64,000 nt of DNA from Alphaproteobacteria bacterium (GTDB taxonomy: Bacteria; Pseudomonadota; Alphaproteobacteria; Bin95). The stretch lies in contig OZ219785.1 in assembly GCA_964291285.2 (NCBI GenBank), positions 224,001 to 288,000 on the forward strand, written 5' to 3'. The notes below the pieces were generated by a model. It saw nothing but the letters and a program-made list of their open reading frames with translations. It had not been told where the DNA came from and searched no databases. The translations under genes and the position numbers were made by a program. The first letter of the stretch is position 1, and every line of letters starts with the position of its first letter. Below are positions 46,842 through 62,942 of this stretch, in pieces.

Positions 46842-47486
46842 GGCATCTGCTCCTCTGCAGTGTCGTCTGCACAACGGTAAACGCGGAATGCGACAGATCT
46901 CTTTCGGTCTTGCCTCGCTTGTCGGCGCAGGGCGTACTCCCGGAACATCAGGAGCAACACGTCTTCGGGTCGAGTGAGCCTTCGCCGGGGATTCGGGAAA
47001 AGGCGGAAGTCACGTCGCCGGCTCGCGTCGCAATGACCGTCGGTATCATAGTTAGGCATAGCGGTATGAAAAAGGGGGCGGCCGTGCGGTGCAGTCCAAC
47101 CGGCCTTGCCGTCGGTGCCTATCCGGTGCGAACACCGCCTCCTCTTTGTCGGCGCGCCGGCCGATCAGCAGGTTCATGCCGTCGCCGGCACCCTCCGGCG
47201 GGAAAACCTCCTCCCGCTCGTTCTCCCCGAAGTCATCTCCGGTGCTCCTCGTCACTGATGCGTTCGTGACCGGGCAGCATGGAGGAGGACGAGGGGGTAT
47301 TCATCTCTCGTGACAGGCCGCGGCGGGCGACATGACAGACTCTACTGTCGTTAAGCACCCGGCTCTGACCCTTCATGATTGAATGCAATCAATCGCTTAT
47401 GGCGCTGATCGGCGTCCAAGCACCGCGCCGGGCAACACCTTTGGGCGATTTCGAACGCCAAGGTGTTGTTGGACCGAGTCGATGCT

Positions 47487-47711
47487 CTAGAGAACCGCCC
47501 GAAACGCCGCCGCGTCACCCATTCCGGGCTGCGATTGCCCATCCCGGACGACCCGGAAGAGGGGTGCCCCGGTGAGCGCGCGGGCACTCTCCTCCGCTTC
47601 GCTGAGCACGGTGTCGAGGGTGGCGTTGATGCGCGGGATGGCCACGTTTAGGGTGGAGATGGGCCCGCACAGCGTCCGGTTCTCCCGCCTCGCGTCGTCG
47701 GACTGCGTCAG
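47487..47711 (-). pseudogene. Possible remnant of a GAF-domain sensor protein N-terminus
   Basis: Minus-strand translation ...IPRINATLDTVLSEAEESARALTGA... resembles the helix that opens GAF domains; no proper start codon, early stop. Confidence 0.3.
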
Positions 47712-47734
47712 GGCACCTCCCTTTCCGATCTAGC

Positions 47735-48031
47735 TCATTTTTATTGAAACGACATCATAAAATCGATTGCTCACACGTACATTTTACACATGATGTTCTA
47801 CAGTCGAGCAGAATTGGCTTGCTGGTTCGACGAAACGGAATGCTGCGGGGTCGGCAGCCGGTGCATGTCGTGCTGGATACTGCGCCAGCGCGGCTTCCTT
47901 GAGGCGGCGGAACCGGATGCTTCGCCGCTGGCGTTGCAACTGCGTGAGGTTCCCATATTCGCAGACAATCTCGGCAACGAGCCACGAACCGGGGTGGCTC
48001 CCGGCCCCGCGTCGCCTCCGACCGCCGCAAG
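47735..48031 (+). repeat. Left arm of the 297-bp inverted repeat enclosing the RiPP island
   Basis: Reverse complement of 61945-62241 with three mismatches found by eye; AT-rich outer end. Confidence 0.93.
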
Positions 48032-48052
48032 CAAGTCGGGCGAGGCGCCGTC

Positions 48053-49171
48053 ATGAACTTCGAAGAGGGACTGGTTGTCACGCAGGAGCGCCTTTCCCGC
48101 GAGGCAGGTTCCCTGGGGGAATTGCTTGCACGGCTGCGCGGCCGTATTTCCTCCGTGCTGATCGGAGACCGGGAATGGGAGCAGCTCCTGGAACGCGCCC
48201 GGGAGCTCCCCGCCGCCATGGCCGCCTTGCCCTTCGGCTTCGAACTGCCGCTGCACGAACGCCGTCCGGGAGCCGACCTCGGCGTATCGGTAGTCGGCGG
48301 AACCGGATCGGCCGTGTATTTCGAAAACATGGTCCGGTCCGGAAACGAAGATCCGGTCGTCTCCGGAATCGTAGGGCTGCTGCGCGAGACGGAGCGGGAT
48401 GACTCTCATCTCGGTCAGGTCATCGGCCGCAAGATGATGCTCGAATACGACGTCTGGTCAGCGCCAGGCGGCACGCGCCCGGCCCCGGGGATCTTCCTGC
48501 GGCCGGCCGAACGGCCCATCGCGGGCGATGGCGATGCGGGGCGGATTCGGGATATCGGTGTCGTGCTGGCGGCCTTGGCCTCCGCCGCGGGGTGGAACCT
48601 CGATGCTGCCGAGCGCCGGTTGACCGAGCGCGTTCACCTGGCGCAGCCGGCGGATACGCGCATCGATTCCTTCGGCGTGTTTCCCGCGCGCGAACAAGCC
48701 ATCCGGCTGGCGGTAACCGGTTTTCGGTCTCTGCACGACGTCGCGGCGTTTCTGGAGCGCGCCGGCTGGCGCGGGGGAACGGTCCTCTCCACTGCGTCCG
48801 GTCTCGAACAACGCGGCGGCTTTGCGAGCCTCGGGGCCCACATCGACGTACGGGCCGACGGCCCGGGTCCTTCGCTCGGGCTGAGTTTCCTCGCGAAGCA
48901 CCGAATAGCCAACGACCCGAGCTATTGGCTGGACTGCCCCGATCAGTGGACAACCTTCCTGGATGGGTTGCGTCGGGAAGAACTTGCCGTCCCGGAGAAA
49001 CTGGATGCGCTGGCCGCATGGTCGCCGGGTCCGACGACATTGTTCGGTGCGTCCGGGGCATTCGTGCTGGTGCGGGGCATTCACCATATAAAGCTCGTGC
49101 TGACCGGGGACCGGGTCGCGCAAGTCAAGGCCTACCTTTTCATGGCGATGACCGCCGCGCCACCCCCCTAG
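48053..49171 (+). CDS. Uncharacterised 372-aa protein; candidate ABBA-fold peptide/aromatic prenyltransferase
   Basis: Clean ORF; spaced motifs FGFELPL, ADLGVS, MLEYD, IRLAV, LGLSF, W..FLD.L, HHIKLV, VKAYL; functional call is inference from motifs only. Confidence 0.45.
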   Translation: MNFEEGLVVTQERLSREAGSLGELLARLRGRISSVLIGDREWEQLLERARELPAAMAALPFGFELPLHERRPGADLGVSVVGGTGSAVYFENMVRSGNEDPVVSGIVGLLRETERDDSHLGQVIGRKMMLEYDVWSAPGGTRPAPGIFLRPAERPIAGDGDAGRIRDIGVVLAALASAAGWNLDAAERRLTERVHLAQPADTRIDSFGVFPAREQAIRLAVTGFRSLHDVAAFLERAGWRGGTVLSTASGLEQRGGFASLGAHIDVRADGPGPSLGLSFLAKHRIANDPSYWLDCPDQWTTFLDGLRREELAVPEKLDALAAWSPGPTTLFGASGAFVLVRGIHHIKLVLTGDRVAQVKAYLFMAMTAAPPP

Positions 49172-49216
49172 ACGAGTATCGGCCGGGCGTCACCCGCACC
49201 CGATATCCACAGCCGG

Positions 49217-50107
49217 ATGGAGAGCAAATTGCCCCGACCGCACGATGTCGATCACATGCGCGCCGTCGAGCGCCACTACACCAGCATGACCGAGAAGTTC
49301 TATCTGAACGGCTGGAACCGGGACCATAATCATCTCGGGCTGTTCGAGCCGGGAGAACTGCCCCCGCCGGGCCAGAAGCCCCGGCATTCGGCAGGAGTAG
49401 CAAGGGCGGTGGAACGCATGATCGACGTCGTGGCCGGACCTGCCGCGATTGCGGAACACCATCATGTGGTGGATGCCGGATGCGGCGTTGGCGGTACCGC
49501 CATTCATCTCGCAAAAGCACATGGTTGCAGGGTCACCGGCGTGAACATCAACCGGCTCCAACTGGAGATCGCGCAGAAGAAAGCGATGGATGCGGGCGTT
49601 GCCGACCGGGTCGGCCTCGAATATGCGGACTGCTGCCGGAGCCTGCCCTTTGCCGACAATACAATCGACGTCGTGGTCAACATCGAAAGCGCCTGCCACT
49701 ACAGCGACCGGGAACGATTTCTCCGCGAGGTCCATAGAATCCTCAAGCCCGGCGGAAAAATCGTTGCGATGGACTGGATGGCGCGGGACCGTCTGTCGAC
49801 CGAACAGTACGACCGGTTCATCCGGCCGGTCTGCCAGTCATGGGCGATGGTCAGTCTGGAATGCCAGGCCACCTACACCGCCAAGCTGCAGGAGGCGGGC
49901 CTGGAGATCGTGGAGTTCGAGGGTTTCGGCGGGAAGGAAATGGACAACCTGAAAATCATCGAGAACGACTATCGCAACCTTACGCTCATGTATTTCGGCG
50001 GATTCGGGACGCCGCCGTTTCTTGAGCTGATGGAGGGGATCGGCAGACTGTACGCGGCCTGGCGAGACGGTTATTTCGAGATCAGGCGCTATTGTGCGCA
50101 GAAGTGA
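49217..50107 (+). CDS. SAM-dependent methyltransferase (sterol/tocopherol/prenyl C-methyltransferase-like)
   Basis: HNHLGLF, VVDAGCGVGGTA, VTGVNIN, LPFADNTIDVV.NIESACHY, RILKPGG. Confidence 0.88.
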   Translation: MESKLPRPHDVDHMRAVERHYTSMTEKFYLNGWNRDHNHLGLFEPGELPPPGQKPRHSAGVARAVERMIDVVAGPAAIAEHHHVVDAGCGVGGTAIHLAKAHGCRVTGVNINRLQLEIAQKKAMDAGVADRVGLEYADCCRSLPFADNTIDVVVNIESACHYSDRERFLREVHRILKPGGKIVAMDWMARDRLSTEQYDRFIRPVCQSWAMVSLECQATYTAKLQEAGLEIVEFEGFGGKEMDNLKIIENDYRNLTLMYFGGFGTPPFLELMEGIGRLYAAWRDGYFEIRRYCAQK

Positions 50108-50196
50108 GAAACCGTCCGCCGGCCCTGCGCAACCGGCTTTCCATCTGCGTGCGACCGCGAAGACGGACGCCGAGGGCTCCGTGACGCAGATCCGAT

Positions 50197-51066
50197 CTAG
50201 GGAGCCCTCCGGCCCGACAGGAGCCGGTAGGTGAACGCGCCGCGGCGCAGCCCCTCATCGAAATCCAGCGCTGCCTGCATGAAGTCGAGCCATGGTCGCC
50301 GCTCCTCGCCCGGGTGAGGATTCGCAAACCGGTACAGAAGCCAGCTTGCCCTGGTTGCCTGCGCCGATGGCGCCACCTCCGCATCCAGCTTCCTTGCCTC
50401 CCCGCCCTCAAGTTCCGCTTTTTCGAGGTCTGCAAGCGCCTGGCGCCATGTGACGAGCGGCGGCATGCGGAAGCCCTGCTGCATCCTTGCGTGGACCTCT
50501 TCCAGTTTCGGAGAAAGCGGCCGGCCGCTCAGCAACCCTTCCAGGGCCTGCCACCGCCCCCCGGGCTTGAGCACCCGGCGGACGCCTCGAAGATACGCAA
50601 CCTTGTCGGGCGCGTAGCAGAAGGACTCGTGGTTGATCACGGCGTCGAAACTCGCATCGGCGAACGGCAGGTCCATGAAGTCCCCGTGGAGAAACTCGAC
50701 CAGATGGCCGACCCCTCGTCGCTCCGCCTGCTTTGCCGCTACGGCGACATGCGGTTCGCAGTTGGTCAATCCCGTGACGTTGACCCCGTGCGTTTCAGCC
50801 AGGTAGATCGCCGTACCCCCCACGCCGCAGCCGGCATCCAGCCAATGCGCTCCCGGCTCCAGGTTGCATCCCTCGGCCAGCACCCGGTTGGCCCGCAACA
50901 GGGCTTCGCGGTCCGTCCCGGTGTCCGGGCCCCAAAGCCCGAAATGGCACGCCAGCAGGTCCCCGTTCGACACAATCATCGCCGGCGTTATTGCCGTGTA
51001 GAGGTCGGGGACGGACAGCTCCGTCTGCGCCTCCCCGGACGATCGGCTGGAAGCGCCGCCGGTCAT
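50197..51066 (-). CDS. SAM-dependent methyltransferase (second copy of the same class)
   Basis: CHFGLW, WLDAGCGVGGTAIYLA, LPFADASFDAVINHESFCY, RVLKPGG; ATGA overlap with the MMPL stop. Confidence 0.88.
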   Translation of the reverse strand: MTGGASSRSSGEAQTELSVPDLYTAITPAMIVSNGDLLACHFGLWGPDTGTDREALLRANRVLAEGCNLEPGAHWLDAGCGVGGTAIYLAETHGVNVTGLTNCEPHVAVAAKQAERRGVGHLVEFLHGDFMDLPFADASFDAVINHESFCYAPDKVAYLRGVRRVLKPGGRWQALEGLLSGRPLSPKLEEVHARMQQGFRMPPLVTWRQALADLEKAELEGGEARKLDAEVAPSAQATRASWLLYRFANPHPGEERRPWLDFMQAALDFDEGLRRGAFTYRLLSGRRAP

Positions 51067-53435
51067 GCTTCGGGCCGATGCCGGCGCTTCGACTTCAGGG
51101 AAGGGCTTTCGCCGCCGGCGCCGCGATCGACGGCCATGAGCAGCGACGGCAGGTGCGTCAGGTCGGCGAGCAGCGCGAACCCGATGATCATTGCGATGAG
51201 CAGGCCGACCTGAGCGGTGGGGATGAATGGTGAGAGCACCAGAATGAGGAATCCCGCCACAAATATGACCGTGGTCGTCGCGAGCGCCTGTCCAACCGAC
51301 CGGAACGCGCAACGGACGGCGTCTTCCGCCGTGCAGTCGCGCTCGCGCCGGGCGCGCTGGTATTTGCTCAGGAAGTGCACCGTGTCATCGACCACAATCC
51401 CGATCGTGATGGCCACCACCACGGATAATGCGAGCCCGACCTGCCCCACCGCCAGGCCCCAGACGCCAAACGCCAGGATTGCGGGGGCGAAGTTGGGCAC
51501 GAGGCTGACGATGCCCAGCCGGAACGAACGCAATGCAAACAGAAGAACAATGGAAATGCCGAGAAGGGCAACCGAGGTTCCAAGCAGCATCGCCCGGATG
51601 CTCCGCTGGCCGATATGCCCGAACAGGAGCGCCGGGCCGGAACTGTCAACATGCACGATGCGGGATGCATTGGCTTGCAGCCAGGCCTCGGCGCGCCCGT
51701 TCAATTCAATGACATCCTGCGACGACAGCGTCTGCGTCGTCACCGTCATCCGGGTCGCAGACCGGTCGGGGTCGATCCGGTCGTTCAGGTTGCGGCCCTG
51801 TGGAAGCGAAAACTCGTAGAGCAGGAGGTATTGGGTGGCGAGTTCCCGATTCGCGGGCAGGCGATAGGCCTCCGGATCGTCGCCATGCATGCTCTTGTTG
51901 AGTTGCCGAAAGGTATCGGTGATGACTTCGACGTGCCGCGTCTCCGGCTGTTCGCGATACCAGTCGGCGAAGGCGGCCACTTCGGCCAGAAAGGCCGGGT
52001 CGGTCACATCTCCCGGTCGGCCCGCCGCCAGCGAATACTCGAATTGCGTGGTGCCGCTCAGCCGCTTGTCCAGGAAATCGGTATCTTTACGGACCTGAGT
52101 GCTCTCATCGAAAGAGTGCACCAATACGTCGTTCAGTTCATTGCGCGGAACTGCTGCCAGCAAGGCGAGCACGACCGCCGCCGATCCCCACATCAGGATC
52201 TTCCGTCGGCCGACCACGAATTCGGCCATGGCCGTCATCACCCGACTGTCGCGTTCCCTGGCGGCCGGTGTGCTTCGCAACGGCAGAAGCGACAGCAAAG
52301 CCGGCAGAAAGGCGATCGAGAGCGGGAACGCGGCGACGATGCCGAACGCCACGAAGTTCCCGAGATCGCGGTGGGGCGGAACCTCGGAGAAGTTCAGGCT
52401 CAGAAAACCGAGTGCGGTAGTCAGGTTGGTCAGAAAGATCGGATGCAGGTTGATCCTTACGGCTTCGATGATTGCCGCGCGCCTGGCATCGCCGGCGCGC
52501 AGGCGCTGTCGCAAGGCAACCAGCAGATGCACACAGTTGGCGACCACGATCATCATTACGATGCTCGGCGCCGGAGTAGCGGTAGGCGAGAGGGGCAGGC
52601 CGGTCCAGCCGCCCAGCCCCATCGATACGATGACCGAAAAGACAATCGCAAGCACTGTCGCCGCAACTCCCGCAATACTCCGGGTCAGGAGTCCGAGGAT
52701 CACGACCATGACCGCGAGGCTTGCAGGCAGAAAGACCTTGTGGTCGTTGACCGATGCTTCCGAAAAGGCGTGGTTGATGACGACCGTCCCAACCGCTCGG
52801 AACCCGATGCCGGGGAACCGTTCCTCCGCTTCCGCAACCACGCCGTCAGCAAATGCGGCGATCTCGGGCACCCGAACCGCCTGATCTTCTTCGACCAGCT
52901 CGACGGTTACGTTGACGGCGCTGACGCTTCCGTCCCGGGACACCAGACTTCCTGCGAGGCCGAGGTCGGCCAGGGCAATGTCACGGACCCGGATACGCTC
53001 CCGTTCCTGGCCCAACAGCGCCGGATCCACGAGGTTCCGTACGGATAACTCATCTCCATCTGCGGTAATGCGCTGGAAATTCGCCATCGAATCGACGCGC
53101 TTGGAGTATGGCGTCTGCCACGCACGCTCAGTGAGCCAAACCAAAGCTTCGAGCGCCTGTTCCGACGTGGCGTCGCCACCATCCGGAACGATCATGAAGA
53201 GGATGTTGTCAGTTTTCCCGTAGGTGCTTTCCAGCGCTTCGTACGCCAGAAGTTCAGGATTGTCCTTGCTGAAGAATATGCGGTAGTCGGTCGTGAAATT
53301 CAGAAACAGGCAGCCGCTTCCGGCCAACAGAACCAAAATCGTACCGACTGCGATGACAGGCCAGCGGAAAGCGACCGCCCACCGGGCGCACCGTTCTTCG
53401 AGCTTGAGGGTCCGGACATCGGGCGTCTCTGCCAT
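51063..53435 (-). CDS. MMPL/RND family transporter
   Basis: TTDYRIFFSKDNPEL, PIFLTNLTTALGFLSL, GIVVDDTVHFLSKY; two repeated TM halves. Confidence 0.88.
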   Translation of the reverse strand: MAETPDVRTLKLEERCARWAVAFRWPVIAVGTILVLLAGSGCLFLNFTTDYRIFFSKDNPELLAYEALESTYGKTDNILFMIVPDGGDATSEQALEALVWLTERAWQTPYSKRVDSMANFQRITADGDELSVRNLVDPALLGQERERIRVRDIALADLGLAGSLVSRDGSVSAVNVTVELVEEDQAVRVPEIAAFADGVVAEAEERFPGIGFRAVGTVVINHAFSEASVNDHKVFLPASLAVMVVILGLLTRSIAGVAATVLAIVFSVIVSMGLGGWTGLPLSPTATPAPSIVMMIVVANCVHLLVALRQRLRAGDARRAAIIEAVRINLHPIFLTNLTTALGFLSLNFSEVPPHRDLGNFVAFGIVAAFPLSIAFLPALLSLLPLRSTPAARERDSRVMTAMAEFVVGRRKILMWGSAAVVLALLAAVPRNELNDVLVHSFDESTQVRKDTDFLDKRLSGTTQFEYSLAAGRPGDVTDPAFLAEVAAFADWYREQPETRHVEVITDTFRQLNKSMHGDDPEAYRLPANRELATQYLLLYEFSLPQGRNLNDRIDPDRSATRMTVTTQTLSSQDVIELNGRAEAWLQANASRIVHVDSSGPALLFGHIGQRSIRAMLLGTSVALLGISIVLLFALRSFRLGIVSLVPNFAPAILAFGVWGLAVGQVGLALSVVVAITIGIVVDDTVHFLSKYQRARRERDCTAEDAVRCAFRSVGQALATTTVIFVAGFLILVLSPFIPTAQVGLLIAMIIGFALLADLTHLPSLLMAVDRGAGGESPSLKSKRRHRPEA

Positions 53436-53645
53436 GCTCACGCCCACCGCAAGCGAACGCCCCGCAAACGGGCACGACCGCCCGTCTTCAACATTGCTGC
53501 AACGCGGCGGTGGAAATCGCGGCCGGACGGGCAATCGGCGGCTTGCGCCATGCGGCGTCGGCGCTCACCGTTCACGCCCGCAAGCGCCGATAGTCTGGAG
53601 CCGCCCCGAGTTCGGCTTCACCGGCCCCGGGGCAGCAAGACTGCG

Positions 53646-53900
53646 TCAAGTTCCGCAGCAGCACCAACCGGCGGAGATTGCCTCAAGCTGTTCTTCATTC
53701 AGCACCGGCGTCGGCGGCAGTGCAAGATGAACGGTCTGCATGTCGCTCTCATGCACCTTGATCTCGGTGCTGTCCGGAACGGTGATCCCGAACTCTTGAC
53801 TCAGGACACCTTTGGGATCGGACACAAGCTGGGCTCGGAAGTCTGCATCTTCAACGGCTTTCTGAGTCAACAGCGAAAGCGTTTCCTCTGCAGTTTGCAT
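53646..53900 (-). CDS. NHLP-leader RiPP precursor; predicted core WCCCGT
   Basis: Leader KAVEDADFRAQLVSDPKGVL...IKVHE...HLALP and double-Gly-type LNEEQLEAISAG; strong RBS aaggagaaggagg. Confidence 0.92.
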   Translation of the reverse strand: MQTAEETLSLLTQKAVEDADFRAQLVSDPKGVLSQEFGITVPDSTEIKVHESDMQTVHLALPPTPVLNEEQLEAISAGWCCCGT

Positions 53901-53932
53901 AGCTGGCCTCCTTCTCCTTTACGGTCACGCTC

Positions 53933-55384
53933 GGTCGTGTCCCCAGGGGTGGTGTAGGAGCTGAAGCTTCCGGTGGTAGCTGTGGGTAAGTGGCCCGCCG
54001 CCGCGACCGTCTGGAGTCAGGCGGCGGCGGGCCACTTACCCACAGCGGAGGCCATCGCGGTGCCGGTTAGGGTTGGGCTGTCACAGTCCACCTGACCGGA
54101 GGAGTACCACGATGACCACCACCGACATGATGACCCTGCGGGCGCTGTTGGAGAAGAGTTCCGACGCCGACCTGCTTCGCGAGATGATCGGGTTCACGGC
54201 CGCGCGTCTGATGGCGCTTGAGGTTGAGGGCCTTGCGGGCGCCGCGCACGGCGAGCGCTCGCCGGACCGGATCACGCAGCGCAACGGCTACCGGGACCGG
54301 GTCTGGGAGACGCGGGCCGGCACGGTCGAACTGAAGATCCCGAAGCTGCGCAAGGGGAGCTACTTCCCGGGCTTCCTTGAACCGCGGCGGATGGCGGAGA
54401 AGGCGCTGACGGCGGTGATCCAGGAGGCCTACATCAAGGGCGTATCGACCCGCTCGGTGGACGACCTGGTGCAGGCGATGGGCATGTCGGGCATCTCCAA
54501 GAGCCAGGTGTCGCGGCTGTGCGGCGAGATCGACGACAAGATCCGCGACTTCCTCGACCGGCCGCTGGAGGGCGACTGGCCGTATCTCTGGCTTGACGCG
54601 ACCTATGTGAAGATGCGCGAGGCCGGGCGCGTCGTCTCGGTCGCGGTCACCATCGCGGTGGCGGTCAACGATCAGGGCCGGCGCGAGGTGCTCGGCATGG
54701 CGATCGGCGCGTCCGAGGCCGAGACCTTCTGGACCGACTTCCTGCGCTCGCTCGCCCGCCGCGGCCTGCGCGGCGTCAAGCTGGTGATCTCCGACGACCA
54801 CAAGGGCCTGAAGGCCGCCGCCACCCGCATCTTCGGCGCCACCTGGCAGAGATGCCGCGTCCACTTCATGCGCAACCTGCTCGCCCATGCCGGCAAGCAG
54901 GGCCGGCGCGTCGTCTCCGCCTTCGTCACTACCGCCTTCGCCCAGGAGGATGCAGACAGCGCCTCCGCCCAGTGGCGCCAGGTCGCCGACCAGCTCAGGC
55001 CCAAGGCGCCAAAGCTCGCCGCCATCATGGACGAGGCCGAGCACGATGTTCTCGCCTACATGACCTTCCCGGCCGCGCACCGCGCCAAGCTGCACTCGAC
55101 AAACCCGCTCGAACGCCTCCACGGCGAGATCAAGCGGCGCACAAACACCGTCGGCATCTTCCCCAACGAGGACGCCATCACCCGGCTGATCGGCGCAATC
55201 CTGCTCGAGCAGAACGATGAATGGGCAGTCCAGAGAGCCAGATACATGACACTGGAATCCATCGCTCCCGTGAGCGACAATACAACCGTCAAGTTGCCCG
55301 CCGTGGCAGCCTGAGCGTTCCGGCCCTACCCGCCGGACACCGCTACGGACGCCAGGCTCTTACACCACCCGCGGGGGCACGATC
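53933..55384 (+). mobile_element. IS256 family element with 8-bp target duplication TCACGCTC
   Basis: Imperfect IRs ggtcgtgtccccaggggtggtgtaggagc / gctcttacaccacccgcgggggcacgatc; tcacgctc at 53925-53932 and 55385-55392. Confidence 0.93.
54112..55314 (+). CDS. IS256 family transposase
   Basis: [59 protein letters not shown]. Confidence 0.95.
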
Positions 55385-55595
55385 TCACGCTCGGGATATC
55401 TGGCGCATGCCGCCAGTCAGCAACCGATATAACAGCGTATCGGATGATGACGTAAGTTGCAATCTGTTATCCCGATATCATCCAATCGACAGCGATGACC
55501 GAGAGTGCGAACGCCGCGACGCGCCCGGCGGCGACCTGGGCTCGATGATGGTCACGGCCGTGGTCGAGGGTTGGACGCTCGGTCCCGACCGCGTT

Positions 55596-58517
55596 TCAGG
55601 CCAGTTGTCGGCGAACCAGAGTCTGAAAGACGCCTTCAGTCGCCATCAGTTCCGCAAAGGATCCCTCCTGGACGACCTTGCCTGCCCGCATCACGTAGAT
55701 GCGATCCGCCTGACGCAGCGTGGAAAGGCGGTGCGCGATAACGATCCGTGTCGAGGTCATGGATGCGAGGTTCTGCATGACCGTGGCTTGGCTGTCGTTG
55801 TCGAGCCAGTTCGTCGCTTCATCAAGCAGAAGAATGCGGGGATTGCGAAGCAGCGCATGGGCGATCACGATGCGCTGGCTCTCGCCTCCCGAAGTGACGC
55901 CGGCGCTAGTGCCAACGCGCGTCAGCATGCCCATGGGCATCGCCGATATCGCGCGATCGACGGCCGCAAGCCGTGCGGCCCGCCACACATCCTCTTCGGT
56001 TGCATCCTCGTTATCGTCGACGATGTTGTCCCACACGTCCTCCGGATGGAGCCGCACATCCTGAGGTACCACGCCAATTCGCCGGCGCACCTGCTTGATG
56101 TTGAGGTGATTCAGGTCGCGACCATCGTAGTACACCGAGCCGGAAGACGGCCGGTCCAACCCAAGCGCGAGACGGAAAAGCGTGCTCTTGCCGGCTCCCG
56201 ATTCGCCGGCAATGGCTACGAACTCCCCGGGTCGGGCGTGGATCGACACGTCGTCGAGGATCATCGGGCCCTCCGGATCGTAGCGGAAGTTGACGTGGTC
56301 GAACACGATGTCGCCGCCCAAAGTCTCGACCATCTCTCCATCAACACTCGTCTCCGGGGGCTCCGCCAGGAGCGGCCGAACCTGATTCAGCGCCGGCATG
56401 ACGGCGGCCACGGCGCCGAAGGACGCGCCGAGGCGGGTCACCGCCGTCTGGAACACGAGGAACACCGTATAGACGACGAGAAAGTCCCCTACCTTGAGGG
56501 CCTCGCGGTCCGGCAGCGTCGCGGCGGCGAACAGCACGGCACCGGCGAGGAAAGGCAATGCGGCGCTGAGCGCCTGCAGACGATCTTCGATGGCGTCCCG
56601 TTTCAACTCGGCCTGTTTCTGCTCGCGATAGTCCCGTGCCCAGACCGCGAACGCCGACCCTTCCGCGCCCTCGACCCGCAATGCGGAAATCCCGTTGATG
56701 AGCTGGAACAGCCGACCGGCCAGGCGCCGCACGGCCCGGATCACTCTGCCATGGGGTGTTATCTGCCGCACGCCGAGCGCCACGGTCGCGACGAGCGAGA
56801 CGAGCCCGAAGGCGACGGTCACGCAACCCAACGTGACGTCGTAGAAGAAGATGAGGATGAAGGCAGGGGACAGGAAGACAATCGACAGCACGGCGTTGGC
56901 GACCACGCCCTGAACGGTATCGCGAAGAGTCTGGAACGTCATGCCCCTCATGGCGAGGTCGCCGGCCGGATAGCGTTGGAGGAAACTCGGAGGCAACCGG
57001 AGCAGACGATCCCAGAACGCAGCCTCGACCCGTGATGCAACGCGTCCTTCGAGGCGCATCAGCGCCATTCCCTGGAGGACGTGGAGCAGCGCCCCGAGCA
57101 GGGCGACCACGGCCAGCGTCGCGGTCGCCACATACAGCAGACCAGGCTCTCGACCAGCGATCACCTCGTCCGCGACGAAGCCCAGCATCAGCGCCGGCAG
57201 CAGCGTGACCAGACCGCCGAACAGCCCGGCCACGACGAAACGCGCGAGGTCGATGTTCAGTCCCGTTCCGGCGAGCCGCAGCAGAGCCCCCAGCCCTACA
57301 CCGGTGGACGGGAGTGGACGATAGAACAGCCATGCGTCGGTGCGGAGCGTTTCGGCGCGCCCGGCCGTAACCCTGATGCTGCGCCGCGCACCGGGATCCA
57401 CTTCCCGATAGCGCCCTGACATACCCGGCAACAACACCACGGACCGGCCGTCGTCCGCCCGGAACGCCAGCATCACGCCGGAGTTTCCGATCCACCACTT
57501 GTCGCGGCGGGCCAGCCGCACCCGGCGGGCGCGCACGCCGGAAGCATCCAGCACATTGCCGAGGATGGCCGAGGTATTGGAGGCTTCCATCCGGGCCGGC
57601 CACCTGAAGTCGATTCCTTCGTGACGACCGATGATCTCCAGTGCCTTGAGCAACGCCGTCTCGCCAGCGTCGGCATTTGCCTCTTCAGCGAGACCGTACA
57701 GGTCGAACAGGCGATGCCGGGCGCTGTCCTCGTCGATGCGGCGGCTGGTCGCCCGCGCCCGCTCCAGATTCGCCTCGTCGACGACCGCGAGGCTCCGGTT
57801 GAGGCGCTCCAGAGAGAACGCTGCGGCATGGAAATCCGCCAGGGCGGATAACAGACGGCCCTCCTCGGCGAGGGTGTCGGAGGACCGGGCGGAGAGCAGC
57901 ACCTCTTCCGTCAGTGATAGCCATGTCGCCGGCGTGAGCGGCACCGCGCCCGACCCGCCGCCGCCATCCGGCCCGCTCTCCACCGGATCGATCAGGCCCA
58001 GGAACAGGCCCGCGCCTTTCGCCACCGACACCCACTCCACGCCGCGCCGGGTACTGACCGTGCCGGCACTTGTCTTCGGGACCTCCCCGGCTTCGACCAG
58101 GACATCCGGGCGTGGCCGATAAGCGACATCCCGGGAGAGCATGGCGGAAACCGCCATGAGCCACGCATCGACATGCTCCGCCAGTTCCGCACTGCCGACC
58201 GCCGCCAGATCGTCAGCCGGGATGCGCCGCAGCACCGTACCCGGCAAGCCCTTGGCGACAAGGCTCAGAGTGGTGTGTTCCACCTGCGGTGCGACACCGG
58301 GCAAGAAGCGCCCGGAAGCGGCCCGAAGCAGGTGTTGCGGCACCGATTGCTCTACCCCGTCCCGGTGTTCCACCAGGAACAGGTCCACCGCGCCTTCGTC
58401 GACAAACCAGGCGAACTGCGGATCGCTCATGTCCAGCGGCAGGTTACCGGCGCAGGGCACGGGCACCCCCGCTTCAGCGGCAAGCTGGGCAAGCGGGCGG
58501 CGTTGCGGCAGCGCCAT
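55596..58517 (-). CDS. NHLP bacteriocin system ABC transporter, permease/ATP-binding subunit (TIGR03797-like)
   Basis: N-terminal WFVDEGAVDLFLV segment, RARRVRL...WW, AAFWDRLLRLP, GESGAGKST, SGGESQR, LLDEATNWLD. Confidence 0.88.
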   Translation of the reverse strand: MALPQRRPLAQLAAEAGVPVPCAGNLPLDMSDPQFAWFVDEGAVDLFLVEHRDGVEQSVPQHLLRAASGRFLPGVAPQVEHTTLSLVAKGLPGTVLRRIPADDLAAVGSAELAEHVDAWLMAVSAMLSRDVAYRPRPDVLVEAGEVPKTSAGTVSTRRGVEWVSVAKGAGLFLGLIDPVESGPDGGGGSGAVPLTPATWLSLTEEVLLSARSSDTLAEEGRLLSALADFHAAAFSLERLNRSLAVVDEANLERARATSRRIDEDSARHRLFDLYGLAEEANADAGETALLKALEIIGRHEGIDFRWPARMEASNTSAILGNVLDASGVRARRVRLARRDKWWIGNSGVMLAFRADDGRSVVLLPGMSGRYREVDPGARRSIRVTAGRAETLRTDAWLFYRPLPSTGVGLGALLRLAGTGLNIDLARFVVAGLFGGLVTLLPALMLGFVADEVIAGREPGLLYVATATLAVVALLGALLHVLQGMALMRLEGRVASRVEAAFWDRLLRLPPSFLQRYPAGDLAMRGMTFQTLRDTVQGVVANAVLSIVFLSPAFILIFFYDVTLGCVTVAFGLVSLVATVALGVRQITPHGRVIRAVRRLAGRLFQLINGISALRVEGAEGSAFAVWARDYREQKQAELKRDAIEDRLQALSAALPFLAGAVLFAAATLPDREALKVGDFLVVYTVFLVFQTAVTRLGASFGAVAAVMPALNQVRPLLAEPPETSVDGEMVETLGGDIVFDHVNFRYDPEGPMILDDVSIHARPGEFVAIAGESGAGKSTLFRLALGLDRPSSGSVYYDGRDLNHLNIKQVRRRIGVVPQDVRLHPEDVWDNIVDDNEDATEEDVWRAARLAAVDRAISAMPMGMLTRVGTSAGVTSGGESQRIVIAHALLRNPRILLLDEATNWLDNDSQATVMQNLASMTSTRIVIAHRLSTLRQADRIYVMRAGKVVQEGSFAELMATEGVFQTLVRRQLA

Positions 58518-58521
58518 TGGG

Positions 58522-60744
58522 CTAGCCCGCCTTGACGAGCCGGTAGTAGGCCCCGTCCTCGTCCGCCATCAACTCGTCGTGGGTGCCGCGCTGCGCCTCC
58601 GTGCCCTTCTCGAGCACGATGATCTGGTCGCAATCCCGGATCGTACTCAGCCGGTGCGCGACAATCAGGCAGCTCACCCCGCGGCGGCGCAGCGCGTCGT
58701 TCACTTCCTCTTCGGTGGCGGCGTCGAGAGCGCTCGTCGCCTCGTCAAGCACCAGCACCGTCGGGCTGCCTACCAACGCACGGGCGATTTCGAGCCGCTG
58801 CCGCTGGCCGCCGCTGAAGTTGCCCCCGTCCTCATCCACCAGCGTCGCATAGCCGAGCGGCCGGGCGAGGATCTCATCGTGGATGCAGGCGTCCCTGGCC
58901 GCCGCTGTCACGGCGTCGTCGGGAACGGAGTGATTCCACAGGGTGATGTTGTCGCGCACGGTCGCGGAGAAGAGGACAATGTGCTGTTCCACCGTCGAGA
59001 GCGAGCGCGACAGCACGTCGCCGGGAATCTCGTTTCGCGGACGTCCGTCGAACAGAATCTCGCCGGACCAGGGCTCGCAAACGCCGGAAACCAGGCGTGA
59101 CAAGGTGGATTTTCCGGACCCGCTCGGGCCGACCACCGCGATCCGCTGTCCCGGCTTGATCGTCAGATTGAAATCTTCGATCAGGGGCGGCCGGGCGCGA
59201 TTGTAGCCGAAGGTGACGTTGCGCAGTTCCACATGGCCGGCCAGTTGCAGCCGACCGTCCAACGTCGCGATGGCCTCCGACGACGGGGCCTCATCCGCCG
59301 CCTCTCCGTCTTCCGGCGCTTCCATGATGTCATCCAGGCGCTGCATGTCGGCCTCGAGCGCCTGCCGCTCATCGGCGAACTCGACGAAGCGTCCCACCGG
59401 TGCGAGGAACATGGCGGCCACGATGTAGAACCCCGCGAGCGCGCCGAGCGTCAACTCGCCGGCGATGACCTGGATTGCCCCGAAGGTCAGCACCACCGCG
59501 TTCCCGAGCACCATGAAAAAGCCCGGCAACGCTGAATTGACATGGCCGAGCTCAGCGACGCGCTGGCGTGCGACGAGCTCGCGAGCCTGATGGCCGCTCC
59601 ACCGGGAGAAAAAGCCATCGTCTGCGGCGGTCATGCGCCGGGTATCCGTGTGGTGCAGCATCAGCGTGCCGACACCCGCCAAGAGCCCCTGCTCGCGGCG
59701 CAAGATGTGGCTCCTGTCGGTCCGGAGGCGCGCGATGACGCGCACGAACGCCGCGTTCAGTACCGCCAAGCCAAGCACGATCAACGCCAGGACAGGCTCG
59801 TAGGCGAGCATCACCGCCAGAAACACCGCACTCATCACGAGCTCGGCCAGGAACGCGGGAAAATGCTCCGACATGCCTCTGGCGATCCTCTCGATGGAAA
59901 GGACGCGCGCGGTCAGTTCGCCGCCGAGCTGTTGACTGAAGAAATCCACCGGCATCCGCAGCAGTTGCGACATGCAACGGTTTCCCGCAATGACCGAAAC
60001 CCGTGCAGCCAGCCGCCGCAAGCAGCACTGCTTGAGCCTGGTGAGGCCATAGGCCAGAACGGCGGCCGCAGCCATGATGGCGGCCACGAACTCCCCCCAG
60101 GGCTCGTTCTCCAGCAGCACCCGATCCACGAAAACCGCGAGCAGTGCCGGGGTCACTAGGGCCAGCGCGGCCAGCATCAGCCCACAGGCGATCGTGTAGG
60201 TTAGAGCACCTTTGGCACCGCCGAGCCACTGCGGGATCCGTTTCAGGAAGTTGGGACGCGCACCGCCGCGTTCGAACGCCGGGCCGGGTGCGAATTCCAG
60301 TGCAATTCCTGTGAAGCCGATGCTGAATTCTTCGGTCGAGAGCGTACGGCGGCCCGAGGACGGGTCGTTGAGAAAGAACCGATGGCGGTCGAAGCCTTCC
60401 AGGATGAGGAAGTGGTTGAATTCCCAAAACAGAATGAGCGGTAGCGGCAGCTTTCTGAGCTGGTTCAGCTTCACGCTGCGGCCAGTGCATTCCAGACCGT
60501 AGTGTCTGGCGGCACGCGAGATGCCGGCGGCGCTGGAGCCGTCCCGGCTGACCTCGCATCTGACGCGCAACTCGTTGAGCGGTACCCATCGCCCGAAATA
60601 GGCGAGCACGCTACCAAGGCATACGGCGCCGCACTCGGTGGCGTGCATCTGCAGCAGGAGGGGCGTGGTGACCCGCTTCTTCACGAGCTCCGTTGGGGCT
60701 TCGTCGCGCGCTTCCACGGATGCGTTCCGGCCGCGCCCGAGCAT
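58522..60744 (-). CDS. NHLP bacteriocin system ABC transporter with C39 peptidase domain (TIGR03796-like)
   Basis: TPLLLQMHATECGAVCL (Cys), CEVSRDGS, FWEFNHF (His), LNDP (Asp); GPSGSGKST, FSGGQRQRLEIARAL. Confidence 0.92.
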   Translation of the reverse strand: MLGRGRNASVEARDEAPTELVKKRVTTPLLLQMHATECGAVCLGSVLAYFGRWVPLNELRVRCEVSRDGSSAAGISRAARHYGLECTGRSVKLNQLRKLPLPLILFWEFNHFLILEGFDRHRFFLNDPSSGRRTLSTEEFSIGFTGIALEFAPGPAFERGGARPNFLKRIPQWLGGAKGALTYTIACGLMLAALALVTPALLAVFVDRVLLENEPWGEFVAAIMAAAAVLAYGLTRLKQCCLRRLAARVSVIAGNRCMSQLLRMPVDFFSQQLGGELTARVLSIERIARGMSEHFPAFLAELVMSAVFLAVMLAYEPVLALIVLGLAVLNAAFVRVIARLRTDRSHILRREQGLLAGVGTLMLHHTDTRRMTAADDGFFSRWSGHQARELVARQRVAELGHVNSALPGFFMVLGNAVVLTFGAIQVIAGELTLGALAGFYIVAAMFLAPVGRFVEFADERQALEADMQRLDDIMEAPEDGEAADEAPSSEAIATLDGRLQLAGHVELRNVTFGYNRARPPLIEDFNLTIKPGQRIAVVGPSGSGKSTLSRLVSGVCEPWSGEILFDGRPRNEIPGDVLSRSLSTVEQHIVLFSATVRDNITLWNHSVPDDAVTAAARDACIHDEILARPLGYATLVDEDGGNFSGGQRQRLEIARALVGSPTVLVLDEATSALDAATEEEVNDALRRRGVSCLIVAHRLSTIRDCDQIIVLEKGTEAQRGTHDELMADEDGAYYRLVKAG

Positions 60745-61635
60745 TCAGGATTGTCCGTGGACGAGAAGCGCTGCCGGCGTGCTCCGGCCAAGTTCGATCC
60801 GTACGCGGCAAGGGGCACCGTCGGGCACGGAGAGAGCTGGTTCGTGCGCAAGGACGACATCGATCCGGTGTCCTGATTCCGCGGTTGCGGGCAGCATCGC
60901 TGCCAACCAGTGGGGCAACGGCCCGGCGGCCACTAAAGCGACCTCGCCTTGCAGGTGCCGAATCGCACCGTCCGACATTGTGACCTCGACGGACGCCCCC
61001 ATGCCGGGCCGGATGCGTTGCGCCATGTCGGGAGCGGCGCGGAGCACCGCTTGCAGCGGACGATCGTCCGCCTCCCGGAGCAGAGCCACCGGCGCACCCG
61101 CCGGCAGATAGTCTCCCGCAGCGGCGTACAGGTTCACGACCTCGCCTCCGATCCGGCTGACGACCAACGCCCGCGCGGCACGACGGGCTTCCATCTGCAA
61201 CAAGGCGGCATGAGCCGAGGCCAGCAACGAACGCAATGCGTCGCCCCCTCCGCCGGCCTCCCGGATTTCCGCCTCCAGAAAGTCCACGCGCTCGCGCAGG
61301 ATCCCTATCTCCCGATCCAGTTGCGGCACGCTCTGCCGGGCGATCGGGTCACCGGCCGCGATGCGGCTTCCGGGAACGACCAGGAGCTCCACGAGGTGAC
61401 CGGATTCGGACGAAACCACGTTGTGGCGGGCGCCCGGCTCGATCAGGACCCCGTCGAAGGCGACGCTGCGAGCGATACTGCCGAACAGCGCCCATGCCAC
61501 AAACCCTGCCAAGACCAGGCCGATGCCGGCCAGTATGACGCGTTCGTGGGGCGCGGTTATCCGCAGCAGACGGTCGAGTTGCTGGCGCTCGTTCCTGCTG
61601 ACGGCGGCTTCCTCGCGAAACGGGTTGCTGAACAC
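60745..61635 (-). CDS. NHLP bacteriocin system HlyD-type secretion protein (short; TIGR03794-like)
   Basis: PFREEA...QQLDRLLRIT, TM ending WALFGSI, DGVLI, C-terminal TPAALL; GTG start. Confidence 0.8.
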   Translation of the reverse strand: MFSNPFREEAAVSRNERQQLDRLLRITAPHERVILAGIGLVLAGFVAWALFGSIARSVAFDGVLIEPGARHNVVSSESGHLVELLVVPGSRIAAGDPIARQSVPQLDREIGILRERVDFLEAEIREAGGGGDALRSLLASAHAALLQMEARRAARALVVSRIGGEVVNLYAAAGDYLPAGAPVALLREADDRPLQAVLRAAPDMAQRIRPGMGASVEVTMSDGAIRHLQGEVALVAAGPLPHWLAAMLPATAESGHRIDVVLAHEPALSVPDGAPCRVRIELGRSTPAALLVHGQS

Positions 61636-61944
61636 CGGCTATCGCTCTCCAATCGTCCGGTCGCGGCTATAGGCAAGGCGGCGCGATTGTGTGGCGGAGG
61701 CCGCGCCCTCGAAGCGAGGCGAGGTGCCGTGCATCGCCCACCCCTCGCGATGACCGGGATCGCTCCGCATGTAGGCCCAGGCACCGCATCCCGGTCCGTG
61801 GCTTTGCCGCGGCTCACCGTCCGCCGTCCCGGCAAGCGCCGCCTGGAGGCACGCTGCAGACGGCTTCACCACCACGCGTTCAGCCGGAGCCGGGTCACGT
61901 CGACCTCGATCTCCGCCGGGCTGTCGACCTTCCCCGAGCACGCA

Positions 61945-62241
61945 CTTGCAGCGGTCGGAGGCGACGCGGGGCCGGGAGCCGCCCCGGTTCGTGGCTCGTT
62001 GCCGAGATTGTCTGCGAATATGGGAACCTCACGCAGTTGCAACGCCAGCGGCGAAGCATCCGGTTCCGCCGCTTCAAGGAAGCCGCGCTGGCGCAGTATC
62101 CAGCACGACATGCACCGGCTGCCGACCCCGCAGCATTCCGTTTCGTCGAACCAGCAAGCCAATTCTGCTCGACTGTAGAACATCATGTGTAAAATGTACG
62201 TGTGAGCAATCGATTTTATGATGTCGTTTCAATAAAAATGA
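61945..62241 (-). repeat. Right arm of the 297-bp inverted repeat
   Basis: Reverse complement of 47735-48031. Confidence 0.93.
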
Positions 62242-62242
62242 T

Positions 62243-62766
62243 CCGATCTTCCCTGCGGCATGGCGCACCGCGGTCCCGCCGCCCGGACCCGGGTCCAGAA
62301 GCGATCCAGCCAACCGGAGGTTGGCGGCCGGTCCGTGTGCGCCGCCCCGAACACCCACCGGCCCTTGCGGTCCAGCGCATTCAGGATGTTGCGGGCGGGC
62401 GTGGACAGCCAGACGGTTTTCGATCCCGTCTTGCCGTCTCGGAGGAACAGATGGCCTTCCCGGCAGTCGCGCCATTGCAGGGTGAGGAGTTCGCCCTTGC
62501 GGCAGCCGGTCGGCAGAAGAAGCCGGATGACCGCGACCTGCCGCGGCCGCCGAGGCGCGCGCCTCGTCGATGCTCATGGCGCCGGCATCGCCGACAATCT
62601 TCCAGACACGCTCGCCGCGATGCTGGCACTGGATGAAGAACCGCTTCCTGCCGGTGGGCATCACCCGGACGCCGAAGCCCTTGAGTCTGGCGTCCCGGAT
62701 GTCGTAGGGTGACCTGCGAGGTTTGAGCGCCTCGATGCGGGCGGCGGTAAGGGTAACCTTGGGCAT
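62243..62766 (-). pseudogene. Degenerate tyrosine integrase (arm-binding domain fused out of frame to part of the catalytic domain)
   Basis: MPKVTLTAARIEALKP...DARLKGFGVRVMPTGRKRF...SIDEAR, then in another frame IRLLLPTGCRKGELLTLQW...LRDGKTG...FWTRVR; core-binding domain and HxxR C-terminus missing. Confidence 0.82.
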
Positions 62767-62942
62767 GTCGCTCTCCCGGTTCCAGTTGCTGACGGGGAAG
62801 CGCCAGTGGTGGCATTTGTTCCCCGGTTGCAGTTTTTCGGGAGAAAAAAGCGATGCCATATCAGATAGTTGGTACCACAAGGTGCGTATCCGGTGTCTTC
62901 TTCCGCAAAACCGACGACGATCAGGGAAAGGAACCCCATCCG

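Follow-up and report, generated by a model that had tools for sequence, protein, structure and literature searches.

A long inverted repeat around an NHLP-type peptide cluster as two probable copies of a promoter/leader module with a linked sensor-regulator

In OmpR-family regulons, such as that of PhoB with its pho boxes, an autoregulated divergent promoter lies beside the regulator gene. Putative mobile promoters (PMPs) were defined by Matus-Garcia, Nijveen and van Passel as upstream regions sharing at least 80% identity over at least 50 nt, with the similarity lying between -150 and -50 of the start codon and the downstream coding sequences being non-paralogous (PMC3575422); mobile insertion cassettes and elements resembling miniature inverted-repeat transposable elements (MITEs), such as Correia, represent cargo or non-autonomous elements (PMC3575422). 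Here we analyze a 297-nt inverted repeat in a stretch of 64,000 nt (the window) from an Alphaproteobacteria bacterium of the Bin95 lineage (assembly GCA_964291285.2, contig OZ219785.1, positions 224,001 to 288,000; G000:C1:224001-288000 in our notation), whose genome, G000, comprises 6.13 Mb in 5 contigs with 68% G+C. The two arms of this repeat bracket a cluster for a peptide made on the ribosome and modified after translation (RiPP), of the NHLP type, and appear to head its two convergent transcription units. The closest described category is promoter reuse, in the form of the PMPs. The reading that we favor, and hold with a confidence somewhat above even, is that the arms represent two copies of a regulator's target promoter and leader, which would drive the two convergent operons, one arm being a recent copy of the other or converted by it. 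On this reading, the repeat can be explained without a new kind of element, as two regulon promoter/leader copies lying within a decayed genomic island. What seems noteworthy is an undescribed promoter module, apparently shared horizontally between this sponge-associated bacterium and unrelated sponge symbionts and accompanied by a travelling sensor-regulator, before eukaryote-like secreted proteins and peptide genes.

The arms (Table 1) are 99% complementary over 297 nt, lie 13,913 nt apart and form the single long inverted repeat that our repeat search reported in the 45-64 kb part of the window. Their similarity ends abruptly on both sides, and they differ at three positions: 47903/62073 (G versus A), 47995/61981 (T versus C) and 48026/61950 (C versus T). 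A sequence-only reading of this DNA had already noticed the near-perfect repeat with its three mismatches, the bracketing of the cluster with an arm before each convergent operon, and the lack of a transposase belonging to it. We re-found the repeat at the same coordinates, the gene map agrees with the arrangement, and the only transposase inside is that of an independent IS256-family insertion sequence (IS) with inverted and direct repeats of its own. The spacing given there is likewise reproduced: 21 nt separate the left arm from the ATG at 48053, with a GAGG upstream of this gene start, and the right arm, placed about 310 bp upstream of hlyD, ends 309 nt from the HlyD GTG start at 61635. 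Relative to the start codons, the left arm occupies -318 to -22 and the right arm -606 to -310.

The inverted repeat is real and not an assembly artefact. The evidence, drawn from runs linked to the organism (X1-X3) and from a sponge metagenome (X4), consists of contigs, which break at the arms in X1 and X3, and of 31-mer unitigs. In X3, an independent run, the unitig 47735-47994 shared by the arms has a depth of 285 against 145-157 in the unique flanks, a doubling that supports two copies, the point on which a doubt had been raised earlier. Further, X2 record 9 crosses from 46800 into the left arm as far as 47994; X4 record 26 covers 47613-48101, and hence the whole left arm, with 3 differences; and contigs of X1 and X3 reach the right arm from both sides, stopping about 30 nt beyond each boundary or mismatch because 31-mer unitigs must end there. 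Across the three runs, four different unique flanks are each linked to arm sequence. Recombination between the arms could in principle invert the intervening 13.9 kb; no strand-changing joint occurs among the joints listed, and the contigs all end at the arms. Such an inversion would be functionally silent, a like-for-like exchange rather than a switch, because the two predicted promoters, both pointing inward, occupy the outer ends of arms that are identical. By this geometry, it would not bring about the change in the gene faced by a promoter that characterizes an invertible switch.

Our alignments suggest that each arm is a promoter-plus-5'-leader module of about 300-340 bp. Reading inward, the module would comprise an AT-rich box (TTTTATnGAAAyGACATCATAAA), CCACAC and ATTTAAC elements, a TAnAAT-type -10-like hexamer without a recognisable -35, and a GC-rich leader. 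The 18-row consensus reads TTTTATgGAAAtGACATCaTAaA. Ctg. aT. tccACACg. ACATTTaAc ..., the box being its most conserved part, and the hexamer reads TAAAAT, TAGAAT, TATGAT or TACAAT in most of the other copies. The leader of the left arm, which is GC-rich, would be about 245 nt long, and in many copies an open reading frame (ORF) preceded by a ribosome-binding site (RBS) lies 90-180 nt past the box. An ACATCAT...ATGATGT dyad had been singled out in the sequence-only reading. Its halves are present at 47749-55 and 47790-96, but it is conserved only in the arms and in two of the genomic paralogues, C3_1764 and C2_936, and we rejected it as an operator. By eye against consensus sequences, the spacing fits none of the Fur box, the pho box, or the sigma-54, sigma-28, ECF and phage-polymerase promoters. 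A coding role was also considered. The ORF of 88/106 aa within the arm (start 47790/62186) has no Pfam or NCBIfam match, its differences from the paralogue C1_626 fall mostly, by eye, on second codon positions, and it closes after 5 codons in the 90%-identical and closest paralogue C3_1764; therefore, the arm is non-coding.

A genome-wide search with the arm (blastn and nhmmer), which had been proposed as a check when the repeat was first noticed, reveals a small family: G000 holds exactly 7 copies (E 7e-48 to 3e-38; the next match has E 1.3), namely the two arms and five further loci. Of the latter, C1_626 is 71% identical over arm positions 5-295, thereby spanning the whole arm, whereas C3_1764 is 90% identical over arm positions 5-128 (124 nt); the similarity across the family reaches 45-60 nt upstream of the arm's outer end. 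To look beyond this genome, a degenerate 22-nt box pattern was scanned over one genome per species. In four of the 34 pattern loci, the match continues over 95-140 positions of the profile (E 6e-16 to 1.4e-12); the remaining 30 match only around the pattern, with E of at least 1e-4. The four lie in a Gammaproteobacteria metagenome-assembled genome (MAG), G041 (two loci), in the chromosome of a Candidatus Poriferihabitaceae bacterium, G042, and in an Albidovulum MAG, G043; the NCBI taxonomy places the Poriferihabitaceae in the Gammaproteobacteria and Albidovulum in the Alphaproteobacteria. These genomes hold 4, 4 and 2 copies, respectively, and 2 of 64 metagenome pattern matches extend as well (L074 and L114), bringing the family to 19 copies: 7 in G000 and 12 elsewhere, in three sponge-symbiont genomes and two metagenome contigs. 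A search of 40 relatives, including 16 congeners, did not recover the arm, the only hits being three short, weak ones of 22-63 nt with E ~1e-4 (G006 and G027), and no copy was found in 120 sampled order-mates of G042; samples of this kind do not prove absence.

All copies point at downstream genes, and the 17 copies other than the arms (5 in G000 and 12 elsewhere) are solo, without an inverted partner. The genes that follow them include those for an FN3 repeat protein (C1_626), an SRCR protein (L053), an FN3/LapA protein (L055), an OEP fragment (C3_839), small family-less proteins with N-termini that by eye are signal-like (C3_1764, C3_885 and L032) and 49-aa peptides ending in WCSLFAM (L051 and L054). 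The family resembles the PMPs in consisting of highly similar non-coding upstream regions before unrelated genes, within a genome and across distant taxa (here two classes), with no Rfam match and no known means of spread. In the terms of the published definition, identity is 99% over 297 nt between the arms and 90% over 124 nt between the arm and C3_1764; the genes downstream, for the prenyltransferase-like protein, HlyD and a family-less 127-aa protein, are non-paralogous; and the interval from -150 to -50 is occupied by the left arm and not by the right arm. It differs from the PMPs in that a candidate cognate regulator travels along, in its linkage to islands and IS debris, and in that two of its copies form an inverted pair around one gene cluster.

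The only protein consistently linked to the block family is this regulator, a 785-aa protein encoded intact at G000:C2:934361-936715, divergently and 50 nt from the C2_936 copy. It combines in one chain the Pfam domains GAF, PAS, HisKA, HATPase_c, Response_reg and Trans_reg_C. At E <= 1e-30, the regulator occurs intact once in G000, and the N-terminal remnant that diverges from the left arm reads CTG at the start codon position. Orthologues, with 63-71% identity across genomes, divergently adjoin the block at a distance of 30-140 nt (Table 1); counting C2_936 and the left-arm remnant, this adjacency is seen in 7 of the 19 copies. No block is present at the 6 examined upstream regions of paralogues with 58-63% identity (G041, G042 and G002), or at 9 congener paralogues (49-59%). 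That different classes have in common a protein with 71% identity and a non-coding block suggests that the pair has spread horizontally. As in PhoB-type regulons, a winged helix-turn-helix (wHTH) gene is found divergently beside a site that recurs upstream of scattered genes, and the -10 without a -35 is as in activator-dependent promoters. In contrast to those systems, the similarity extends over 130-340 bp rather than a 20-bp operator; the sensor, kinase, receiver and DNA-binding parts reside in one polypeptide; and the half-sites are not recognisable, binding by the regulator being a prediction.

Taken together, we advance the following mechanism. The module would most likely be the target promoter of the GAF-PAS-histidine kinase-receiver-OmpR-type wHTH hybrid, and the arms would be activator-dependent promoters with a common leader that answer to the sensor-regulator encoded on C2. 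The left arm would drive the prenyltransferase-like gene and the methyltransferase that follows it, and the right arm HlyD, the two NHLP ABC transporters and, prior to the IS256 insertion, the precursor, the MMPL transporter and the second methyltransferase. As both halves carry the same module, they would answer to the same signal. A duplicated promoter/leader that co-regulates the two halves was one of the explanations offered in the sequence-only reading, and it appears to be favored by the existence of the family, its constant orientation, a conserved TAnAAT with fixed spacing and the linkage to the regulator gene. From comparative anatomy, we infer that the module acts as a promoter, that the regulator binds it, that the two halves are co-regulated, and in which direction the copy was made.

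Several observations weigh against this proposal. The 309-nt gap between the right arm and HlyD means that another promoter could lie between them, and the right-hand operon is at present interrupted by the IS256-family element immediately upstream of the gene for the precursor. A consensus sigma-70 scan of 47500-48200 returned no promoter; the -10 was recognized by eye and no -35-like hexamer accompanies it. Direct-repeat half-sites of the OmpR type are not evident by eye in the box across the 18-row alignment, in which ATGA-CA-TCAT is present. The leader hairpin H1 has 88% of 59 cells paired in 6 copies (partly by G-U), which is no better than shuffles, and the two-sequence consensus fold has compensatory pairs at only 3 of 57. 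The 99% identity could simply reflect a young and neutral event. Finally, no block lies within 1.5 kb of the three homologous prenyltransferase-like genes of G041, G042 and a second G000 cluster, indicating that the module is not intrinsic to the peptide cluster; hence, we rejected the notion that it is a fixed part of such clusters.

This last point is best understood from the cluster itself. Like other NHLP-type RiPP clusters, it has an export set matching TIGR03796, TIGR03797 and TIGR03794 and an NHase_alpha-like precursor, all between the arms; unlike its three homologues, it alone is split into two convergent units, each headed by the module. Homologues of the 372-aa prenyltransferase-like protein, 47-50% identical, were recovered from G041, G042 and the second G000 cluster (C1:39900-52000, L140), and from none of 300 sampled class-mates. 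The second G000 cluster, outside the window, encodes an MMPL transporter, a precursor with LCCCW, the prenyltransferase-like protein (49% identical) and ABC2, in a different gene order. In all three homologous clusters, the prenyltransferase-like gene is colinear with the ABC genes. It had been suggested that relatives might carry a single copy before a colinear operon; colinear clusters are seen in G041, G042 and the second G000 locus, with no block within 1.5 kb of the prenyltransferase-like gene. The convergent split with a module on each half appears to be specific to this cluster and looks like promoter recruitment. The IS256-family element is a further complication of this picture in the right-hand unit, which it splits: it lies antisense to that operon, 34 bp upstream of the precursor gene, between 10-nt direct repeats (TCACGCTCGG) at 53925-34 and 55385-94.

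How the inverted pair arose may be gleaned from its outer flanks, which continue the homology to different paralogues; therefore, the edge of the arm is not the edge of an element. On the right, colinearity with C1_626 continues for about 47 nt beyond the outer edge, and the whole arm aligns with C1_626 as far as the arm's inner end. On the left, the outer flank is colinear with the C2_936 regulator locus, and just outside the arm a 21-nt gap relative to C2_936 removes the upstream box of the family. We propose a starting state that combined, on the left, a regulator gene with its adjoining block and, on the right, a long-form module resembling C1_626; 297 bp would then have been copied or converted from right to left, the regulator gene on the left having since decayed. 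The 99% identity would accordingly reflect a recent copy or gene conversion, with the direction probably from right to left; that there are only three mismatches implies that the event is recent.

The same features admit a neutral version, which we regard as rather improbable, wherein the arms are a by-product of island assembly (an inverted segmental duplication or template switch) and the operons use other promoters. The interior is indeed a patchwork, comprising the regulator remnant, an integrase from which 430 bp are deleted and pieces of an earlier island; a CAAG/CAAG microhomology, noted by eye, marks the inner junction of the left arm; the event is recent; and repeats and IS elements abound in the genome. 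However, the copy landed at the regulator-adjacent place usual for the family, in the right orientation and 21 nt before a gene start with a GAGG. Moreover, the three mismatches are confined to the inner 129 nt and spare the promoter part, although this is a weak argument, with a probability of about 0.08 by chance.

To an equally limited degree, we entertain the possibility that the module acts mainly as an RNA, i.e., as a cis-regulatory leader or attenuator, or in some copies as a free-standing small RNA, with the box serving only as its promoter and the arms imposing post-initiation control. The GC-rich part past the -10 is also conserved within the genome, the arm being alignable to C1_626 through about 230 nt of leader, and G-U pairs keep H1 on this strand only. 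In C2_936, the block is followed about 165 nt in by a stem and GGTTTTTTT with no ORF, and weaker U-tracts are seen by eye at the same place in the arm and C1_626. The minimum-energy fold of the arm places the 3' strand of H1 in a longer hairpin ending in UUCCUU. Against this, Rfam 15 yielded no match at E <= 1 for the 7 G000 loci, and for 10 further loci only an unrelated match to CcsR1 (E 0.73) at a distance from the block; covariation offers no support; and GC-rich sequence folds readily by chance. The leaders also differ between the G000 type and the MAG type, and what is conserved across classes is the AT-rich DNA box. A hammerhead-like CUGAUGA...GAAAC in the MAG-type leaders was examined and rejected, as it leaves no room for stem II and has no Rfam match.

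Another alternative concerns the repeat as a physical boundary and is best judged from the surrounding island. A 4,001-bp contig of the sponge metagenome (X4 record 25; depth 59 and about 93% identical to the flanks) joins 47120 to 62888, skipping 15,767 bp, with 8 letters common to both sides. The same empty site is found in the congeners G002 (L058) and G016 (L061), where the flanks abut with an overlap of exactly 9 nt and a single TATCCGGTG. Because the empty sites join 47120 to 62888, the inserted unit is a 15.8-kb integrase-type island and is not bounded by the arms, its ends lying about 615 bp (left) and 646 bp (right) outside them. Its integrase remnant, which begins 120 bp from the right island boundary, has counterparts in G015 and G010, where 5' parts 95% and 91% identical to 62281-62766 occupy the same site and adjoin the same SDR gene. 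In the congener G015, the island at this site measures 34 kb (G015:C1:1273199-1307246; L069 and L070) and shares only the integrase and two fragments with the window, having neither the peptide cluster nor a copy of the arm. As for the fragments, 47122-47343 is about 71% identical to G015:C1:1281792-1282007, and 47346-47437 is 96% identical to G015:C1:1304742-1304833, inside that island. An integrase at the edge, flanking direct repeats, empty sites and use of the same site by related integrases are all found here. The likeness to the integrase-type (P4-like) genomic islands extends to the 9-bp direct repeats and to the reuse of the site by the 34-kb G015 island, with a 92-95% identical integrase region. 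The difference is that this description fits the container and not the repeat, and that the integrase here is dead, the cluster with its arms having replaced part of an older island.

These results bear directly on the other explanation offered in the sequence-only reading, that the arms are the termini of a non-autonomous cargo element; we considered it together with a composite transposon as the vehicle of the cluster, the arms being the terminal inverted repeats in either case. As in such elements, a long, near-perfect inverted repeat of 297 bp brackets the whole cargo, and Correia-type repeats can carry promoters. In addition, an 8-nt word, TCCGATCT, lies just outside both arms on the plus strand (47725-32, 3 nt off the arm, and 62242-49), and the 3' half of the island's integrase gave way to a segment roughly delimited by the arms. 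Yet none of four marks of a transposon end is present: the arms are not at the ends of the insert, which the empty sites of the metagenome contig, G002 and G016 place at 47120/62888; no target duplication abuts them; the 17 other copies have no inverted partner; and no cognate transposase is present, the IS256-family element having its own ends. With the outer flanks further continuing into homology with C2_936 on the left and C1_626 on the right, we consider this explanation quite unlikely, and it did not survive the comparison. The word TCCGATCT was rejected as a target duplication, given its 3-nt offset and that its right instance belongs to the upstream box of the family, while the left aligns with the 5' region of the C2_936 regulator. 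The weakest alternative, that the second copy is an assembly artefact, draws on the tendency of short-read graphs to collapse or misjoin repeats and on all runs having been available as contigs, and is hardly credible in light of the doubled unitig depth in X3, the four unique flanks joined to arm sequence in three runs, the arm-specific mismatches recovered at the expected contig breaks and the independent metagenome contig spanning the whole left arm.

Returning to the regulon promoter reading, little is known of the control of eukaryote-like surface proteins and peptide products in uncultured sponge symbionts, and the family offers a testable handle on it: a single box and one sensor-regulator, shared across bacterial classes, before genes of precisely those types. 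It predicts that, in a surrogate host, both operons of the silent cluster may be activated by co-expressing G000:C2:934361-936715. As to genome evolution, it would be a clean case of promoter reuse in which the regulator likely travels with the promoter, and it illustrates that long inverted repeats flanking a gene cluster are not necessarily the sign of a transposon. No publication was returned for 16-nt words of the box, and among the papers listed, as judged by titles and the opening parts of abstracts, none concerns a shared promoter of secreted proteins in sponge symbionts. More speculatively, and with little confidence, the regulator and block might constitute a portable "plug-in regulon" passed horizontally between sponge symbionts that are not related to each other (Alpha- and Gammaproteobacteria). 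New block copies would then put eukaryote-like secreted proteins (FN3, SRCR), small Trp-Cys peptides and, in this genome, the two halves of the prenylated-peptide cluster under a single GAF/PAS sensor; the signal could be either the product of the cluster (core WCCCGT or LCCCW) or the 49-aa ...WCSLFAM peptide from next to the regulator gene, giving a ComX-like autoinduction loop in the sponge.

Table 1. Features of the window (positions counted from its first letter) and of related loci elsewhere in G000 and in other genomes
Feature	Position	Strand	Basis or remark
Left 9-bp direct repeat TATCCGGTG at island boundary	47120..47128		X4 contig join
Patchwork of decayed older-island fragments	47129..47564		similarity to G015
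51-codon N-terminal regulator remnant, divergent from left arm	47565..47711	-	tblastn, 37/51 identical
Left arm, putative promoter/leader module toward 48053	47735..48031	+	repeat and family alignments
Most conserved box, TTTTATTGAAACGACATCATAAAAT here, consensus TTTTATgGAAAtGACATCaTAaA	47739..47763	+	alignments of 6 copies and 18 rows
TACAGT, -10-like hexamer, ~59 nt from box start	47799..47804	+	by eye
Leader hairpin H1, 47819-47829 pairing with 47846-47857	47819..47857	+	6-copy alignment
Prenyltransferase-like 372-aa protein	48053..49171	+	no Pfam/NCBIfam match
Class I S-adenosylmethionine (SAM) methyltransferase	49217..50107	+	Methyltransf_11, 7.8e-23
Second SAM methyltransferase	50197..51312	-	domain search
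MMPL/RND-type transporter	51063..53534	-	domain search
NHLP-type precursor, 84 aa, ...LEAISAG then WCCCGT	53646..53900	-	NHase_alpha, 1.5e-9
IS256-family element (transposase 54073-55314)	53935..55384	+	27-nt inverted repeats
NHLP bacteriocin export ABC permease/ATPase	55596..58517	-	TIGR03797, 9.9e-206, 685 bits, below the cut-off of 709
NHLP export ABC transporter with C39 peptidase	58522..60744	-	TIGR03796, 1.3e-260, 866.6 bits, above cut-off
HlyD-type secretion adaptor	60745..61635	-	TIGR03794-like, below cut-off
Right arm, same putative module toward HlyD	61945..62241	-	repeat search
Upstream family extension, right arm only (CGGTGCGCCATGC ... CGCAGGnAA box)	62242..62288	-	colinear with C1_626
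Decayed P4-like tyrosine integrase	62281..62766	-	Arm-DNA-bind_3; ~430-bp internal deletion, 3' half missing
Right 9-bp direct repeat TATCCGGTG	62887..62895		empty-site comparison
Module copy C1_626	G000 C1:626175		
Module copy C3_1764	G000 C3:1764887		
Module copy C3_839	G000 C3:839489		
Module copy C3_885	G000 C3:885356		
Module copy C2_936	G000 C2:936765		
Regulator orthologue, L051	G042:C1:3924231		71% to 785-aa protein; block adjacent
Regulator orthologue, L145	G043:C12:22863-25181		71% to 785-aa protein; block adjacent
Regulator orthologue, L054, cut by contig end	G041:C208		71% to 785-aa protein; block adjacent
Regulator orthologue, metagenome contigs	L074/L114		66% over aa 1-98; block adjacent

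The genome contexts of the window and of the block family offer some further observations. Within the cluster, the listed ORF of the second methyltransferase overlaps the end of the MMPL gene, and hence its true start is probably further in. The precursor of the window has WCCCGT after ...EEQLEAISAG where the 58-65% identical precursors of G042, G041 and the second G000 cluster have LCCCW; these cores are very short, tri-cysteine and Trp-containing, with a prenyltransferase-like gene as neighbor. The homologous clusters (L139 9458-, L140 18142- and L141 12288-) additionally encode an NHLP-leader-like N-terminus fused to a domain of about 450 aa (...GSWPELLAFGDQSL...), a protein for which tblastn found no counterpart in the cluster of the window. 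The IS256-family element holds a 26-nt perfect palindrome at 53979-54046, and its contig has about 70 times the depth of the flanks in X1, indicating that the genome has many copies.

At the island ends, the left-terminal fragment matches a point 8.6 kb inside the G015 island, which suggests two tandem islands there. The integrase remnant has some 25-30 paralogous loci with 70-80% DNA identity on all five G000 contigs, several of them with tandem integrase-like matches. The SDR ORF, listed as 62853-63710 on the plus strand, starts inside the island boundary; its true start is likely the ATG at 62943 (MDLRLAGKTVLITGAS, by eye), and therefore the island sits in the upstream region of the SDR gene.

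Among the other copies, the 49-aa peptides of L051 (G042) and L054 (G041) lie about 170 nt past the box behind an AGGAG-type RBS and end in ...GSWCSLFAM and ...GCWCSLFAM, respectively; standing beside a regulator-linked block, they are possible signals or RiPP precursors. The block family keeps company with mobile-element debris. In L014/L016 (698-1147, plus strand; G041 and G042), the block lies about 330 nt downstream of the truncated N-terminus of an IS5-type transposase (DUF772, 1.1e-13), and in G000 two copies follow truncated integrases (the right arm and C3_839) and one lies 2.7 kb from an integrase fragment. Finally, a direct repeat of about 40 nt, CCGGTCGCCGCGACAA.CGGATT...AGATATCGCCA, is seen by eye on both sides of the C3_1764 copy (G000:C3:1764770-1765050, L003), which would be consistent with insertion or tandem copying of the block at this place.

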